Of a DNA stretch of 64,000 nt, positions 49,575-53,422 are shown in pieces. The position numbers were made by a program, and so were the translations under genes. Each line of letters starts with the position of its first letter. Within the stretch, counting starts at the first letter, position 1. The stretch comes from Escherichia coli O127:H6 str. E2348/69 (GTDB lineage: Bacteria; Pseudomonadota; Gammaproteobacteria; Enterobacterales; Enterobacteriaceae). The stretch is from NCBI RefSeq assembly GCF_000026545.1, contig NC_011601.1, one strand, 5' to 3'. The notes beneath the pieces are model-generated. The model was not told the origin of the DNA. It searched no databases and worked only from the letters and a program-made list of their open reading frames with translations.

Positions 49575-50123
49575 ATGAAGTTAGAAGATTTCGCAGCTTA
49601 TAACCGCCCTCAATCGAAGGTGTCCGATGAGAGGAAATTTCTTGATTACATTCACAGTCGGAACAGATGGGTTGAGTTTATCAAAAGCATCGATAACGCA
49701 AAGCCAGTATCAATTGCCATGAAAAATTCATTCCATAGTCAATGGGTTGAGTCTGGGGCCTTTATACGTGAAAAGATCAACGACGACTCAATTCTCCTCA
49801 AACTATTAACGCTCTTATTGCCAACATATGATGGTGACAGCCTTGTACTTTATCGGGGGGAAAATAAAGACAGGTTCGATAAAGGGCTCATTGGATTTTG
49901 CTGGACAACGGACATTTCAGTCGCCGAGAAGTTTGGTCGTGGATTGAATGCATACAAATCACCAGGTTTGCTGTTAAGAGCTGAAGCTCCAGCCTGTTCT
50001 ATATTAGCTGGCCCCAATGCCCACAGTCGTTATCTTGGTGAAAATGAGTTCACGGTTAACCCCTCGCGTCTTTCAAACATAACCGTTATTGAAACCTATC
50101 CGGACAACTCTTTTTTCAAATGA
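49575..50123 (+). CDS. Opposite-strand moron protein (182 aa), unknown function
   Basis: Strong RBS TGAGGA 7 nt before ATG 49575; AT-rich; transcribed against the late operon between terS and the lysis genes; ordered motifs YRG ... WTTD ... ENEF. Confidence 0.6.
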   Translation: MKLEDFAAYNRPQSKVSDERKFLDYIHSRNRWVEFIKSIDNAKPVSIAMKNSFHSQWVESGAFIREKINDDSILLKLLTLLLPTYDGDSLVLYRGENKDRFDKGLIGFCWTTDISVAEKFGRGLNAYKSPGLLLRAEAPACSILAGPNAHSRYLGENEFTVNPSRLSNITVIETYPDNSFFK

Positions 50124-50255: not shown

Positions 50256-50441
50256 TCAGTCCCGAACGAACGTAACCTTCGTGTTTGTCGCTCGCCGTAC
50301 AAGGCGCGCCGCTTCGCGTTGCATTTCATCGATAACTTTTGGCGTCATCGGCTGATGCGCATATTTACGTTCAATCTCTGCAAAAATCCCGTTCATCGTT
50401 TCGCTGTCTGGTGGGATAACTTTAACGTTTAATCGTGCCAT
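50256..50441 (-). CDS. Small hypothetical protein
   Basis: ORF 50256..50468; internal Met MARLNVKV... preferred; weak evidence only. Confidence 0.3.
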   Translation of the reverse strand: MARLNVKVIPPDSETMNGIFAEIERKYAHQPMTPKVIDEMQREAARLVRRATNTKVTFVRD

Positions 50442-50697
50442 TGGTTTGTGCTGCCCTGTTTTTCTCAAAAGCCCTAATATCAGCCTTATCCCTGTTGCAC
50501 TGTGCTAACGCTGACAACAACGCAACATTCAGGTTAAGGCTAGCTCCCCACGTAAACGGGTCGGGTAAATCTGGCTGGGGTGTTTCATCCGTCAGACTGG
50601 CTGGTAACGGAACGACCGGCACCGACACGTATACCGTTCGCGTATTCGTGCAACCGCTTAACTGCGCCAGAAGGAACGATACGAACAGCGCAATCAT
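50422..50697 (-). CDS. Rz1: o-spanin (Rz1-like outer membrane lipoprotein), overlapping Rz
   Basis: Starts in the +1 frame inside Rz; signal peptide with lipobox LSGC; proline-rich mature part. Confidence 0.65.
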   Translation of the reverse strand: MIALFVSFLLAQLSGCTNTRTVYVSVPVVPLPASLTDETPQPDLPDPFTWGASLNLNVALLSALAQCNRDKADIRAFEKNRAAQTNGTIKR

Positions 50698-50977
50698 CAC
50701 CCGAAACAGCCACTTTGATATCTTCCTGGGTTCTCTGTGACTCCAGTGCGATCTGCTGTTTTGCATGCTGGTTAGCCTCTATAACTGTATTGATGATTTG
50801 CAGAGATTGCAGGACGTTACTGGTAATGGCTGTTGCAGATTCAGCATTTCGTACAGCCTCATCAGCACGCTCCTTTTCGTGCTGATATTTGCTGTAGTAA
50901 TGCCCGGCAGACCAGATAAAAGAACCGATGACGGTAACAAAGAAGGCAACAATAACCAGCTTATATCTCAGCTTCAT
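50585..50977 (-). CDS. Rz: i-spanin (Rz-like)
   Basis: 130 aa; N-terminal TM helix then coiled coil; follows the endolysin gene. Confidence 0.7.
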   Translation of the reverse strand: MKLRYKLVIVAFFVTVIGSFIWSAGHYYSKYQHEKERADEAVRNAESATAITSNVLQSLQIINTVIEANQHAKQQIALESQRTQEDIKVAVSGDDCAVRIVPSGAVKRLHEYANGIRVGAGRSVTSQSDG

Positions 50978-51437
50978 TTACCACCCCACCCGCTTCTTTA
51001 AATCGGGCAATCAGGTCACCGATTCTATGTTCATACTGACCGTAACCAGCCCCCGGCAACGAAGCCCAGATATTGCTGCAACGGTCGATTGCCTGACGAA
51101 TATCGCCGCGGTCAATCATCGGTAAAGCGCCACGCTCTTTAATCTGCTGCAGCGCTACAGCATCCTGGCTTTCTGGAGAAAAATCTTTCAGGCCAAGTTG
51201 CTTGCGGTAGGCATCCCACCAGCGTGAAAGAAGCTGGTAGCGACCGGCTGCTGTTGATTTGAGTTTGAGGTTTAGCGTGACAAGTTTGCGAGGGTGATCA
51301 GAGTAATCAGTGAATAGCTCTCCGCCTACAATGACGTCATAACCATGATTTCTGGTTTTCTGCCGTCCGTTATCAGTTCCCTCCGACCACGCCAGCATAT
51401 CGAGGAACGCCTTACGTTGATTATTGATTTCCACCAT
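50961..51437 (-). CDS. R: Endolysin, lambda R-type lytic transglycosylase
   Basis: 158 aa; [24 protein letters not shown]... matches phage lambda R as remembered. Confidence 0.9.
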
Positions 51438-51744
51438 CTTCTACTCCGGCTTTTTTAGCAGCGAAGCGTTTGATAAGCGAACCAATCGAGTCAGTACCGA
51501 TGTAGCCGATGAACACGCTCGTTATATAAGCGAGATTGCTACTTAGTCCGGCGAAGTCGAGAAGGTCACGAATGAACCAGGCGATAATGGCGCACATCGT
51601 TGCGTCGATTACTGTTTTTGTAAACGCACCGCCATTATATCTGCCGCGAAGGTACGCCATTGCAAACGCAAGGATTGCCCCGATGCCTTGTTCCTTTGCC
51701 GCGAGAATGGCGGCTAACAGGTCATGTTTTTCTGGCATCTTCAT
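51421..51744 (-). CDS. S: Holin, lambda S-type
   Basis: 107 aa; [34 protein letters not shown]... matches lambda S107 as remembered, including the dual-start MKM motif. Confidence 0.9.
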
Positions 51745-51986: not shown

Positions 51987-52062
51987 TGGTGCTGGTTAAC
52001 GGACTTGAACCGCTACCCATTCGCTTACAAGGCGACCGCTCTACCATTGGAGCTAAACCAGC
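51987..52062 (-). tRNA. Phage-encoded tRNA-Thr (anticodon UGU)
   Basis: 76-nt cloverleaf on the minus strand: perfect 7-bp acceptor stem GCTGGTT/AACCAGC, D-loop with GG, anticodon loop CTTGTAA, T-loop TTCAAGT, discriminator A, encoded CCA. Confidence 0.8.
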
Positions 52063-52067
52063 ATGTT

Positions 52068-52142
52068 TGGCGGGACAGCGTGGACTCGAACCACGATAAG
52101 AAGGTTAACAGCCTTCCGTAATGACCTTTATACGACTGACCC
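52068..52142 (-). tRNA. Phage-encoded tRNA, probably Asn (anticodon GUU)
   Basis: 75 nt: GGGTCAG...anticodon stem GAAGG/CCTTC, loop CTGTTAA...GGTTCGAGTCC T-arm...CCA; one acceptor and one D-stem mismatch and a 4-nt variable loop. Confidence 0.6.
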
Positions 52143-52196
52143 AAATAAAAAAAGCCACCGTTGCAACTTAAGAGTCACTAACGGCAGCTTACATCT

Positions 52197-52709
52197 TTAA
52201 ACGGTATGATATTTAATTCTGGCGGCCTCAAAAGCCGCAGCGGCAAGTTCGGCAGTGTCATGGTATCCAAGGTTAATACACTTTCCAGACGCATTAATTC
52301 TTGCTCTCCATTTCCCGTACTTAGCATCCCAAGACACGCCACGGTATCCAGATTTATTATTCTTCTGAATTTTCCTGTTCTGCATATTTTCGGAATGAGT
52401 GACAAGACGAAGATTTGATATCCGGTTATCTGTTCTTACCCTGTTGATGTGATCAATAAAACCATCGGGCATGGTGCCATAAACAATCAACCATGCCAGT
52501 CTGTGAGCAGGGTATGCTTTACCATTAATCATAATCATTAAATACCCATCAGAATTTATTGATGAGCATTTCTTGAAAGCAAAACGAGAGTTCCATGTCA
52601 AAGTGGTCCTCTCTCTCCCCTGCCTCCATCTCCAGTGAAAGTCGCCTGATGATGGATTGTAATCAACAACAGAAAGCACCATTTCTGGCGTTAATTTTAT
52701 TTCTTTCAT
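52197..52709 (-). CDS. HNH homing endonuclease with AP2-like DNA-binding domain
   Basis: 170 aa; HRLAWLIVYG...HINRVRTDNRISNLRLVTHSEN HNH motif, C-terminal YRGVSWD...W AP2-like motif. Confidence 0.75.
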   Translation of the reverse strand: MKEIKLTPEMVLSVVDYNPSSGDFHWRWRQGRERTTLTWNSRFAFKKCSSINSDGYLMIMINGKAYPAHRLAWLIVYGTMPDGFIDHINRVRTDNRISNLRLVTHSENMQNRKIQKNNKSGYRGVSWDAKYGKWRARINASGKCINLGYHDTAELAAAAFEAARIKYHTV

Positions 52710-52830
52710 CGCTTTACCTTAGGGATAGAGCCTGTTCGCGTAGATATGACAGCCAAGAGCGGAGCGATGTTTCCACCACCATATCTCAGGCCCATATCAC
52801 TAAGACTCTTGTTTTGATTGCACGCGAATG

Positions 52831-52854
52831 CAAAAAAGCCCACAGGAGGTGGGC
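52831..52854 (-). terminator. Rho-independent terminator downstream of Q (tR'-like)
   Basis: Minus strand gcccac-ctcct-gtgggc followed by T6; located about 50-70 nt downstream of the Q gene where the lambdoid PR'/qut/tR' unit is expected. Confidence 0.6.
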
Positions 52855-52903
52855 TTGTGATGGTTGCTGAATGCAAAAGCAGCAGCATATGTGAATATTA
52901 TGG

Positions 52904-53422
52904 CTAAATGGCTAATTGCATGTCAAGGCTTTTAACAGCAATATGCTTAACTTTCTCAACACGTTTACGCATTTTGAAAGCATTTTTCATTGGTTGGTAC
53001 AAAACAAATAATGACGCTTTCAGGATGTCGTCAATTTCGTTTCTACAGGTTGCCAGTGAAGGTTTTCTCCATCCCTCGCCACCACGTCCACACATCTTGC
53101 GTGGCTTTGCAGTCGCGTGATAGTAGGATGCAATTGCTCGCTTAGATGAACCATGAGCGTAGTAGCTGAGGAGGATGCCAAAGGCTTTCTTGTCAATGTA
53201 CATGACGGAATCGACGACCTGAGAAATCAACATTCCATCATCATCATTGCACATTGGCCTTGTCATAACTCTTCCCGGCTCTACGCTCTCCATGAACTTC
53301 GCTATTACGCTGCTCATGCGCTTTTCCAGACGACCTGAATAAACCCATGCGCCCCACAGTTCAAGCCAGCCATTCAGCCACTCATGCTGTTCTTTGGTGA
53401 GGTTTAGTTCTCTTATGCTCAT
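52904..53422 (-). CDS. Late gene antiterminator Q (QuuD-like family)
   Basis: 172 aa; LELWGAWVYS and CNDDDGMLISQ...LLSYYAHG segments resemble DLP12 QuuD-type antiterminators; last gene of the nin region before tR'. Confidence 0.65.
   Translation of the reverse strand: MSIRELNLTKEQHEWLNGWLELWGAWVYSGRLEKRMSSVIAKFMESVEPGRVMTRPMCNDDDGMLISQVVDSVMYIDKKAFGILLSYYAHGSSKRAIASYYHATAKPRKMCGRGGEGWRKPSLATCRNEIDDILKASLFVLYQPMKNAFKMRKRVEKVKHIAVKSLDMQLAI

Follow-up and report, generated by a model that had tools for sequence, protein, structure and literature searches.

What do two tRNA genes and an endonuclease gene do between the late antiterminator and the lysis genes of an Escherichia coli prophage, and do they belong together? 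The window analysed here is a stretch of 64,000 nucleotides from E. coli O127:H6 str. E2348/69, whose segment 51900-52950 (1,051 bp queried) is a 100% match to the annotated prophage of that strain in RefSeq. The locus controls late gene expression in a lambda-like (lambdoid) prophage and is mostly described already, being fully annotated in the reference strain. On the minus strand, the order is Q, pR', a terminator, the HNH gene, a second terminator, tRNA-Asn, tRNA-Thr and the holin gene S (Table 1). Taken together, the analysis suggests that the region is probably a Q-controlled late leader carrying two independent accessory modules, namely the tRNA pair and an HNH-AP2 cassette. The pair lies in the late operon, ~25 kb from int/att at argW. 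An anti-RecBCD gene is found in the same prophage, just beyond the window.

Table 1. Features of the late-gene control region, in window coordinates.
Feature	Position	Strand	Evidence
Holin S, lambda-type; first lysis gene downstream	51421..51744	-	Pfam Phage_holin_3_1 2.4e-30
tRNA-Thr(UGU), CCA encoded; G1-C72, C2-G71, U28-A42, G27·A43	51987..52062	-	ARAGORN; Rfam RF00005
tRNA-Asn(GUU), CCA encoded; G73; U4·U69 and U13·U22	52068..52142	-	ARAGORN; Rfam RF00005
Second terminator, promoter-less phage-21-type leader remnant (TAAGCT 52191..52186; tR' hairpin 52190..52152; U7 52151..52145)	52145..52191	-	Identical to Sf6 and phage 21 tR' leader
HNH cassette, 704 bp	52193..52896	-	Junctions mapped by BLAST to Sf6, BTP1 and HK629; sequence comparison
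HNH_3 + AP2 endonuclease gene, 170 aa, predicted freestanding homing endonuclease	52197..52709	-	Pfam, PHROG 99
Shine-Dalgarno AAGG of the HNH gene	52720..52717	-	
Cassette terminator (first tR'): 8-bp stem, 5-nt loop, U6	52830..52856	-	Terminator scan, RNA fold
-10-like TATGCT in the cassette, putative sigma-dependent pause element	52884..52889	-	7 nt past the pR' -10
pR': TTGACA 52926..52921, 18-nt spacer, CATAAT 52902..52897	52897..52926	-	Promoter scan, 11/12
Direct repeat TTAGCCA (two copies), putative Q-binding element	52915..52909, 52907..52901	-	Between the hexamers
Q, late antiterminator, Q21 family	52904..53422	-	Pfam Phage_antitermQ 1.1e-25

The antiterminator is 81% identical to Q of phage 21 and 98% identical to gp59 of Sf6, and matches PDB entries 6JNX/6P18 at 2e-91. 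Sf6 has the same pR' sequence, which bears the annotation of late promoter there. The two TTAGCCA copies stand at 8-bp spacing, the phage 21 equivalent being GAGCAA/TAGCAA. Q21 binds a direct repeat located between the -35 and -10 elements (PMC6606751), and by analogy the TTAGCCA repeat is a putative Q-binding element. The 7-nt spacing of TATGCT is the same as that of TAAGCT in Sf6, and phage 21 carries TAAGCT at +2..+7 of its annotated leader RNA; in the light of the Q21 literature, TATGCT is a putative pause element. The cassette terminator is annotated as rho-independent in HK629, and the second terminator, with a fold of -20.2 kcal/mol (z = -4.15), ends 2 nt ahead of tRNA-Asn. The original prediction had placed all three genes between Q/tR' and the holin; this stands for the tRNAs, but the HNH gene does not simply lie past tR', since it is flanked by two terminators. 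The position of the tRNA genes downstream of the late terminators implies that they would be transcribed only upon Q antitermination, and processing may release the tRNAs from the part of that transcript that precedes the lysis genes.

ARAGORN and Rfam agree on two adjoining minus-strand tRNA genes, Thr(UGU) and Asn(GUU), as had been read from the sequence. Against RF00005, tRNA-Thr scores 61.2 bits (E=9e-12) and tRNA-Asn 55.3 bits (E=3.7e-10), so that both predictors accept both structures, with scores 26-32 bits above the gathering score of 29. According to ARAGORN, the anticodon is at position 34 in both tRNAs, and both have A37. E. coli AsnRS and ThrRS identity elements are GUU and G73 for Asn, and G1-C72, C2-G71, G35 and U36 for Thr, and all of them are present. 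The host genomes contain a median of one match to tRNA-Thr(UGU) and four to tRNA-Asn. The anticodon loops, CUUGUAA in Thr and CUGUUAA in Asn, are the same as those of the host tRNAs, and anticodon-loop escape mutations such as those of T5 tRNAs were hence discarded. The two stem mismatches foreseen for tRNA-Asn were found, U4·U69 and U13·U22 being its non-Watson-Crick stem positions, while the cloverleaf of tRNA-Thr, described as perfect, has a mismatch atop its anticodon stem, G27·A43, as well as one wobble pair, G50·U64.

Are such irregularities signs of decay, as had been proposed for the mismatched tRNA? In its broadest form, this explanation holds that one or both genes are decaying pseudogenes, or remnants of a tRNA fragment from the integration site, and it could draw on the non-canonical positions (two in Asn, one in Thr) and on degenerate or chimeric derivatives in relatives, namely the second tRNA of ST160, the Thr gene of JLK-2012 and an Asn fusion in LZSFT34. 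However, both genes are full-length with an encoded CCA, lie far from the attachment site, and are identical or nearly so among phages of E. coli, Shigella and Salmonella. Across relatives, three stem pairs of tRNA-Asn and four of tRNA-Thr display compensatory changes on both sides; in a set of just 8-9 distinct sequences, which limits power, the covariation score was matched in 0/500 shuffles and slid controls remained near zero. The mismatches are retained in both the E. coli and Klebsiella lineages (G4 occurs in one viral contig only), and G27·A43 is present in 9/9 tRNA-Thr variants. Mismatches that are conserved while neighbouring pairs covary, together with a phage 21 tRNA-Thr that works in vivo, make decay scarcely credible, and on these sequence comparisons we reject it for both tRNAs.

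A function can be proposed from recent work on the P2-OLD nuclease, a defence enzyme of a rival phage, which kills by cutting tRNA-ThrU at the CNG motifs of positions 28-30/40-42 and was activated in experiments by the RecBCD inhibitor lambda Gam (PMC12445682). The tRNA-Thr of phage 21 (“tRNA-Thr21”) resists P2-OLD, rescues cells and restores ACA decoding in vivo; its resistance arises via C28U/G42A and a shortened anticodon stem, both of which were needed in ThrU (PMC12445682). At 28-30/40-42, the window tRNA-Thr has UCG/CGA, against CUG/CAG in host ThrU, and it shares the reported features of tRNA-Thr21, namely a UGU anticodon, U28-A42 and an unpaired 27:43, so that the G27·A43 mismatch corresponds to a reported resistance feature. 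Devoid of CNG motifs and with a shortened stem, it would allow ACA decoding to go on and would probably act as a functional, chargeable, nuclease-resistant spare for the single tRNA-ThrU gene of the host, which gives it a plausible prophage function, escape from P2-OLD exclusion. This anti-OLD role is experimentally grounded for the phage 21 tRNA-Thr only, and is plausible for the window copy, which differs from it by one base (A26G).

The same comparison can be extended to tRNA-Asn, in which the CGG/CCG of the host tRNA is replaced by AAG/CUU, the 28:42 pair being A-U instead of C-G. Since the CNG motifs of the host are gone, tRNA-Asn, itself conserved and probably functional, is most likely a second spare of the same kind and hence a candidate second rescue tRNA, a small new lead. 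Its anticodon stem retains the full 5 bp, and the strength of OLD cleavage of the host tRNA-Asn is not stated in the text of the P2-OLD study (PMC12445682). CNG motifs are retained in the tRNA-Thr of P1 and in the Klebsiella-lineage tRNA-Asn, where the 28:42 pair switches back to CNG, and OLD evasion is therefore not universal for such tRNAs.

An alternative is that codon supplementation alone accounts for the pair, the tRNAs boosting decoders of ACA and AAY, codons favoured by phage late genes over the host. Amino acid usage points that way: relative to a host sample of just 17 flanking genes, late genes are enriched in Asn codons (47.8 vs 33.7 per 1000, p = 8.5e-5), in Thr codons (64.6 vs 51.0 per 1000) and in ACA (10.2 vs 7.2 per 1000). 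In addition, ACA frequencies given in the SfI paper are 17.3% for the phage vs 7.1% for the host. The host has only one tRNA-Thr(UGU) gene. However, the ACA excess is non-significant in the E2348/69 prophage (p = 0.08), as is the share of ACA among Thr codons (15.8% in late genes vs 14.1% in host genes); the choice between AAU and AAC is the same as that of the host, which has four tRNA-Asn genes, and the SfI authors noted no bias accounting for Asn. The comparison of anticodons with late-gene codons that had been suggested thus brings out raised Asn and Thr usage without a synonymous bias for ACA or AAU/AAC, and a codon-bias explanation was set aside since amino acid frequency differs while synonymous choice does not. 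Codon supply also leaves the conserved stem peculiarities unaccounted for. Codon supplementation is thus weakly supported by these counts and unlikely to be the sole explanation, although modest help in decoding the Thr and Asn codons of late proteins may complement the role as spare tRNAs.

The gene next to the pair encodes, as foreseen, an HNH endonuclease with an AP2-like domain. The 170-aa ORF matches Pfam HNH_3 at 2.1e-18 and PHROG 99 “HNH endonuclease” at 2.3e-73, and its C-terminal AP2 match (2.8e-08), at 34.4 bits, is barely over the cutoff of 33.3; this domain also aligns with the AP2 of WRI1 (7wq5) at 8e-7. The catalytic D-H...N...N residues are intact and align with I-HmuI (DH...NLR...N), and the boxes typical of HNN-AP2 enzymes, HRLAWL, DH, DNR, NLR and EN, are all found. 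The protein is hence a predicted freestanding homing endonuclease.

The cassette that carries this gene is present or absent as a unit in comparison with Sf6/BTP1-type phages. Compared with Sf6, BTP1, STB20-1 and VE-T10, it is an indel of 704 bp, with precise boundaries and flanks ~97-99% identical. The 6 nt that it displaces (TAGAAG) stand at ~+1 of the late transcript, and the cassette directly follows the pR' -10 element. It is inserted exactly between the -10 hexamer and the putative pause element, and supplies a pause-like element and a terminator of its own. With these signals, Q loading would be preserved, and the HNH gene would be silent in the lysogen and the first late gene to be expressed. 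HK629 and PhiR12, recorded as isolated phages with listed hosts and carrying the cassette leader, argue that this leader still supports Q function. In E. coli, the cassette was found in 39 of 5426 genomes, every copy being at the same site and at least 98.8% identical to the others, with invariant junctions on the Q side (39/39) and on the tR' side (38/38) while the genes that follow downstream fall into five or more distinct contexts among the retrieved loci. The cassette leader occurs only with HNH or an HNH 5' remnant (39-40 of the 5426 genomes), bar one 65-bp partial match, and the idea of an independent pR' allele later entered by HNH was accordingly dropped. Among loci with the same Q allele, the cassette reaches ~10% (39/396 genomes), and some copies have degenerated, that of VTB96777v through a frameshift and those of PhiR12 and NCTC9112 through truncation; being rare and sometimes degenerate, it may be weakly active.

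Adjacency to the tRNAs, which had been singled out as worth recording, proved facultative. The HNH gene and the tRNAs are 55 nt apart. The pair accompanies 30 of the 38 full-length HNH copies, the cassette occurs without tRNAs in HK629 and in several E. coli prophages, and the ~1000 genomes matching the tRNA-pair query, about one fifth of complete E. coli genomes, are nearly all devoid of HNH. The adjacency is incidental and the two modules assort independently. The tRNA genes were also considered as the HNH target and set aside, tRNA-Asn being identical, and the flanks nearly so, in HNH+ and HNH- alleles; we infer from this sharing that self-immunity needs a target spanning the insertion point. 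Likewise, A26G in tRNA-Thr is not an HNH immunity mutation, as other HNH+ genomes have A26. During mixed infection or induction, the enzyme would probably cut Q21-family late leaders that lack the cassette, at a site spanning the insertion point, after which repair would copy the cassette in.

Could the HNH protein instead be useful to the phage, either as a nuclease working with the terminase, on the model of HK97-like cos phages, or as an AP2-based regulator of the late leader? Its place in the late operon would lead to co-expression with the packaging genes, and AP2 is a DNA-binding module. However, the terminase small subunit is ~2.6 kb away with the lysis genes in between, ~90% of same-Q-allele loci do without HNH, the gene occurs beside unrelated late regions, and frameshifts and truncations are tolerated; position and dispensability rule out the terminase-associated version. 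Intact catalytic residues and membership of the HNH_3/HNN-AP2 family, typically multi-copy and freestanding in phages, further argue against a phage-useful factor, which we regard as highly improbable. A more ambitious reading would join both modules. It takes the Asn-Thr pair as a two-tRNA module against P2-OLD-type anticodon-stem tRNases, with tRNA-Asn resistant via its A-U 28:42 pair and U4·U69 as a further specialisation, and the HNH cassette as an active homing element targeting the +1 region of Q21-family late promoters, which would have acquired its substitute pause element and terminator in evolution to let Q control outlast the insertion, and would drag the tRNAs into naive phages as SegB does in T-even phages. 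We hold this combination to be doubtful. Under the preferred reading of two independent modules, the cassette offers the other small new lead, a homing-endonuclease cassette inside a Q-dependent late-promoter leader with its own pause-like element and terminator, and would be a natural example of a selfish insertion sparing an antitermination switch. These two small leads, tRNA-Asn and the HNH cassette, leave current understanding unchanged.

Among known systems, the closest is the late leader of phages 21, Sf6, SfI, BTP1 and ST64T, which has the same type of pair. That tRNA cargo is known at this position in lambdoid phages is thus borne out by the annotations of Sf6, BTP1 and SfI, and the pair is not new but the long-known one of phage 21, annotated in these three phages and in the E2348/69 RefSeq record. 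Its tRNA-Asn is identical in phage 21, Sf6 and BTP1; SfI gives a 99.4% match, and the SfI paper describes the same tandem pair. With phage 21, the window further shares the tR' hairpin, gene order, 5-nt spacer, position before the lysis genes, U28-A42 and G27·A43, and tRNA-Thr is identical at 75/76 positions, the sole difference being A26G in E2348/69, where other HNH+ genomes have A26. In contrast to phage 21, the Q allele and promoter are of the Sf6 type, and the 704-bp cassette parts the promoter from the 21-type leader. The tandem of phage P1 has the same Asn-then-Thr order, with a Thr tRNA 81% similar, but its regulation differs and its Thr keeps the CNG motifs. Stx phages carry the tRNA genes ileZ-argN-argO between Q/tR' and stx, directly behind the late terminator, with isoacceptors and regulation unlike those of the window pair.

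For the cassette, the nearest relative is HK629, whose gene 61 “HNH endonuclease” lies in a cassette 99.6% identical with both junctions shared. There, the tRNA pair is missing and an unannotated 194-bp element, for which Rfam and ARAGORN returned only a sub-threshold tmRNA-like match, fills the slot; the HK629 annotators set pR' downstream of the terminator, which conflicts with the comparison to Sf6 and phage 21. Freestanding HNN-AP2 enzymes are known from Xanthomonas phages Xp10, Xop411 and OP1, from T1, T5 and Felixounavirus, and from ICP1 (“IPA-HNH”). The window protein shares with them the HNH_3-then-AP2 order, the conserved boxes and a freestanding, polymorphic, degeneration-prone character, but the nearest is only ~45% identical, and the window gene is single-site, in the late-promoter leader of a temperate lambdoid phage, with regulatory signals of its own. 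Finally, SegB of T4/T6, a GIY-YIG homing endonuclease inside a tRNA gene cluster, promotes inheritance or amplification of the adjoining tRNAs and offers a parallel for a homing endonuclease gene next to phage tRNAs with a possible anti-defence role; unlike that system, in which the nuclease family and phage type also differ, the modules of the window assort independently.

ARAGORN called three tRNAs in the whole window, two of which are the minus-strand tRNA-Asn(GUU) and tRNA-Thr(UGU) read earlier from the sequence between the late antiterminator gene Q and the lysis genes. The Rfam tRNA model (gathering score 29) also accepted both structures, so the pair is real. Both genes encode their CCA end and they are separated by a 5-nt gap. 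From the Rfam alignment and pair counts, tRNA-Asn carries non-canonical positions U4·U69 and U13·U22, the two stem mismatches already suspected, while tRNA-Thr, originally described as a perfect cloverleaf, is not quite one, having a G27·A43 mismatch and a G50·U64 wobble. Both anticodon loops are those of the host tRNAs (host sequences verified against all E. coli genomes), overall identity to the host tRNAs being only ~62% (Asn) and ~69% (Thr), and both carry the identity elements generally attributed to the AsnRS and ThrRS of E. coli. The unpaired position 26 of tRNA-Thr is G in E2348/69 (window ~52037) and A in phage 21, Sf6, BTP1, Klebsiella-type variants and other HNH-carrying E. coli genomes.

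Coordinates of the features discussed (window positions unless a relative locus with its own numbering, L, is named)
Feature	Position	Strand	Evidence or remark
tRNA-Thr(tgt)	51987-52062	-	ARAGORN; Rfam 61.2 bits, E=9e-12
tRNA-Asn(gtt)	52068-52142	-	ARAGORN; Rfam 55.3 bits, E=3.7e-10
Original leader tR', promoter-less	hairpin 52190..52152	-	U7; -20.2 kcal/mol, z = -4.15
HNH endonuclease ORF, 170 aa	52197-52709	-	Pfam HNH_3 2.1e-18, AP2 2.8e-08 (just above Pfam cutoff); PHROG 99 ('HNH endonuclease') 2.3e-73
Strong terminator in cassette	52856..52830	-	after TATGCT
Q21-family antiterminator	52904-53422	-	upstream of HNH gene
Lambda-type holin S	51421-51744	-	downstream, with endolysin
130-aa ORF	50585-50977	-	N-terminal membrane helix
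182-aa ORF	49575-50123	+	RefSeq hypothetical
argW (tRNA-Arg CCU)	26442-26516		prophage site
intS	~26678-27835		next to argW
Slot element, HK629	L001 2787-2980
Slot element, VE-T10	L014 ~1290-1500
Slot element, ECE170	L015
Slot element, STB20-1	L013

The 156-bp tRNA segment is 99.4% identical in phage 21, Sf6, SfI, BTP1 and many Salmonella P22-like phages, in agreement with the remark that tRNA cargo at this position is known in lambdoid phages; judged by sequence, the window pair is that of phage 21. In the phage 21 annotation the 50-nt late leader RNA stops one base short of tRNA-Asn, and the Sf6 annotation runs promoter, qut (the Q-utilisation site), tR', tRNA-Asn, tRNA-Thr, with the label 'similar to phage 21'. 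The same tandem, located downstream of Q, is described in the SfI paper, which names Sf6, ST64T, PS3 and phage 21 as other carriers. A 1,051-bp query including the pair matches ~1015 of 5426 complete E. coli genomes. Longer arrays, Asn-(Phe)-Thr-(Arg UCU)-(Gly UCC), occur in related lambdoid phages; Asn comes first in them and Thr is nearly always there. Phage P1 also has an Asn-then-Thr tandem.

Other occupants of this slot were observed. The 'Thr' of JLK-2012 (L010 1581-1656) has a phage-type 5' 25 nt followed by a 3' part like that of host thrU, and is rejected by ARAGORN, as is the second tRNA of ST160 (L009 1581-1649; Rfam 42 bits); in LZSFT34 (L045, just downstream of tR') the phage Asn 5' part runs into a different 3' end from the T-loop onwards, and a TerB-family gene comes next. 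These chimeric or degenerate tRNAs suggest that tRNA genes recombine with one another at conserved T-loops. In phages and prophages lacking the Asn-Thr pair, an unannotated 190-330 bp element fills the slot, from the tR' U-run to AACTGAGCCGTAGCC. Present in 17 phage records (HK629, JEP4, E212, CUS-3, HK75 and others), it begins GCACAACAGGTAAGAGC and finishes with a T-arm-like hairpin and CGCCACAA(C/T)CCA. In predicted folds, a 9-bp acceptor-like helix closes a structure that has D-like and T-like arms and a middle that varies (z ~-1.9). ARAGORN rejects it as a tRNA and Rfam gives only a 20-bit tmRNA-like match against a gathering score of 47; the element is possibly a gene for a tRNA-like RNA.

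To the idea that the mismatched tRNA-Asn may be decaying, we opposed the variants gathered by pattern search from annotated phages and IMG/VR (8 distinct Asn, 9 distinct Thr). Three Asn pairs (6:67, 7:66, 28:42; canonical numbering) and four Thr pairs (3:70, 5:68, 6:67, 49:65) are altered on both sides yet still paired; in this small sample of few lineages, the observed covariation score was reached by 0 of 500 shuffles, and slid controls collapsed. The odd stem positions are kept in all variants, one contig having a G4 that would give a G·U pair. Compensatory stem changes and conserved mismatches thus argue against decay and point to tRNAs under constraint, whose idiosyncrasies are conserved as well.

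What the constraint serves was weighed between two explanations. Codon supplementation is weakly supported in this prophage: Asn codons are more frequent in the late genes than in 17 flanking host genes (47.8 vs 33.7 per 1000, p = 8.5e-5), as are Thr codons (64.6 vs 51.0), but the rise in ACA (10.2 vs 7.2 per 1000) has p = 0.08, its share of Thr codons (15.8% vs 14.1%) does not differ significantly, and AAU/AAC choice is the host's. The suggested comparison of anticodons with late-gene codons shows a difference in amino-acid frequency but none in synonymous choice. Protection against P2-OLD, a P2 prophage defence nuclease and the effector of P2-lambda interference (PMC12445682), is the stronger explanation. 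P2-OLD kills by cutting host tRNA-ThrU(UGU), of which the host has one gene, at paired CNG motifs in the anticodon stem (nt 28-30 and 40-42); phage tRNA-Thr(UGU) genes rescue, and that of phage 21 was tested and found protective, its cleavage resistance stemming from C28U/G42A and a shorter anticodon stem (PMC12445682). The window tRNA-Thr differs from it solely by A26G and carries U28-A42 and G27·A43. Since resistance needs both changes and the window tRNA has both, the G27·A43 'mismatch' would be a functional feature, the experiment concerning the phage 21 tRNA (A26). The comparison of OLD cleavage across tRNAs included host tRNA-Asn (PMC12445682). The corresponding sites read CGG/CCG in host tRNA-Asn, AAG/CUU in the phage tRNA-Asn and CAG/CUG in the Klebsiella-lineage variant, so that the compensatory 28:42 change toggles the CNG motif; with the 5-bp anticodon stem retained, a tie to OLD evasion is suggestive only. 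Because RecBCD inhibition triggers P2-OLD, an OLD-resistant tRNA would be relevant to this phage: an anti-RecBCD gene lies in the same prophage outside the window (NZ_CP059840.2 1554371-1555651; L048 8372-9652). A second, different HNH endonuclease gene lies in the same region, between a Rad52/Erf-like recombinase gene and ssb.

The gene beside the tRNAs encodes, as proposed, an HNH endonuclease with an AP2-like domain, whose catalytic D-H/N/N residues align with I-HmuI; NinH, RusA and YbcO lie further upstream. We delimited its cassette with BLAST searches and alignments, using Sf6 and BTP1 (tRNAs, no HNH) and HK629 (HNH, no tRNAs) for comparison. Sf6 homology reaches the -10 hexamer CATAAT (52902..52897) of the Q-dependent late promoter pR' and restarts at 52192, directly before the TAAGCT of the phage-21-type leader; the gap is TAGAAGG in Sf6 versus 704 bp in the window (52193-52896). 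The cassette starts ATTCACA-TATGCT, which puts a -10-like hexamer 7 nt after the pR' -10, the spacing that TAAGCT has in Sf6. In phage 21, TAAGCT is +2..+7 of the annotated leader RNA, where we infer that the sigma-dependent pause element is to be expected. The terminator, a ~120 nt spacer with an AAGG Shine-Dalgarno and the HNH ORF follow, and the original leader stops 2 nt before tRNA-Asn. The window Q shares 81% identity with Q21 and 98% with Sf6 gp59. A direct repeat (TTAGCCA twice) between -35 and -10, common to the window and Sf6, is a putative Q-binding element by analogy with that of Q21, which occupies the same interval (PMC6606751). Q presumably still loads on the cassette leader, because the isolated phages HK629 and PhiR12 carry it. 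The HNH gene would be silent in the lysogen and would precede every other ORF on the Q-modified late transcript, with RNA polymerase reading through two terminators before the tRNAs and lysis genes; both tRNAs, lying downstream of late terminators, would be made only under Q antitermination.

Among 5426 E. coli genomes, 39 have the HNH gene (at least 98.8% identity), and the leader part of the cassette is found in that set, to which it is essentially confined. The Q-side junction is shared by 39/39 copies, among 396 genomes with this Q allele, and the tR'-side junction by all 38 full-length copies. Downstream lie the Asn-Thr pair and a lambda-type holin, the unannotated element and a lambda-type or another holin, or a chimeric tRNA and a TerB-family gene. 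PhiR12 and NCTC9112 have a 23-codon HNH stump fused to unrelated DNA (in PhiR12_1, L004 2497-2568, upstream of a CP-933V-type large ORF), and one copy, in VTB96777v, is frameshifted (L046 901-1414). The nearest relatives outside E. coli lambdoids are only ~45% identical and belong to the HNN-AP2 group of phage endonucleases, which is large, often multi-copy and freestanding. These comparisons show the pattern characteristic of a site-specific homing-endonuclease gene that goes through cycles of gain and decay, as such genes usually do. As the flanks of cassette-plus and cassette-minus alleles are essentially identical, a self-immune target would have to span the insertion point. The linkage put forward in the original prediction is visible as adjacency, in 30 of the 38 full-length copies, but the cassette and the tRNA pair clearly assort independently.

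The region is 100% identical to the E2348/69 chromosome, where the tRNAs and HNH gene are annotated. Host genes occupy window 1 to ~26400; the prophage is inserted at argW. Its early/nin/lysis region is lambdoid and its late region of the contractile-tail, baseplate-J type, with a tail-fibre gene that the annotation lists as a truncated pseudogene. The 182-aa ORF, on the opposite strand with the lysis genes on one side and the terminase small subunit gene on the other, looks like a moron. The 130-aa ORF, absent from the RefSeq annotation and overlapping the annotated Rz1-like 'LysC' (50422-50766), resembles an i-spanin.

New here, as leads and not findings, are the exact anatomy of the cassette inside the Q-dependent leader and, for tRNA-Asn, the difference in CNG motifs between host and phage. 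All observed features are real and their components already known: the tRNA pair has been known since phage 21, and its Thr member was given an experimentally supported anti-defence role in 2025; HK629, like E2348/69, carries an annotated HNH gene; and SegB of T4/T6 is a well-studied precedent for endonuclease-tRNA adjacency.
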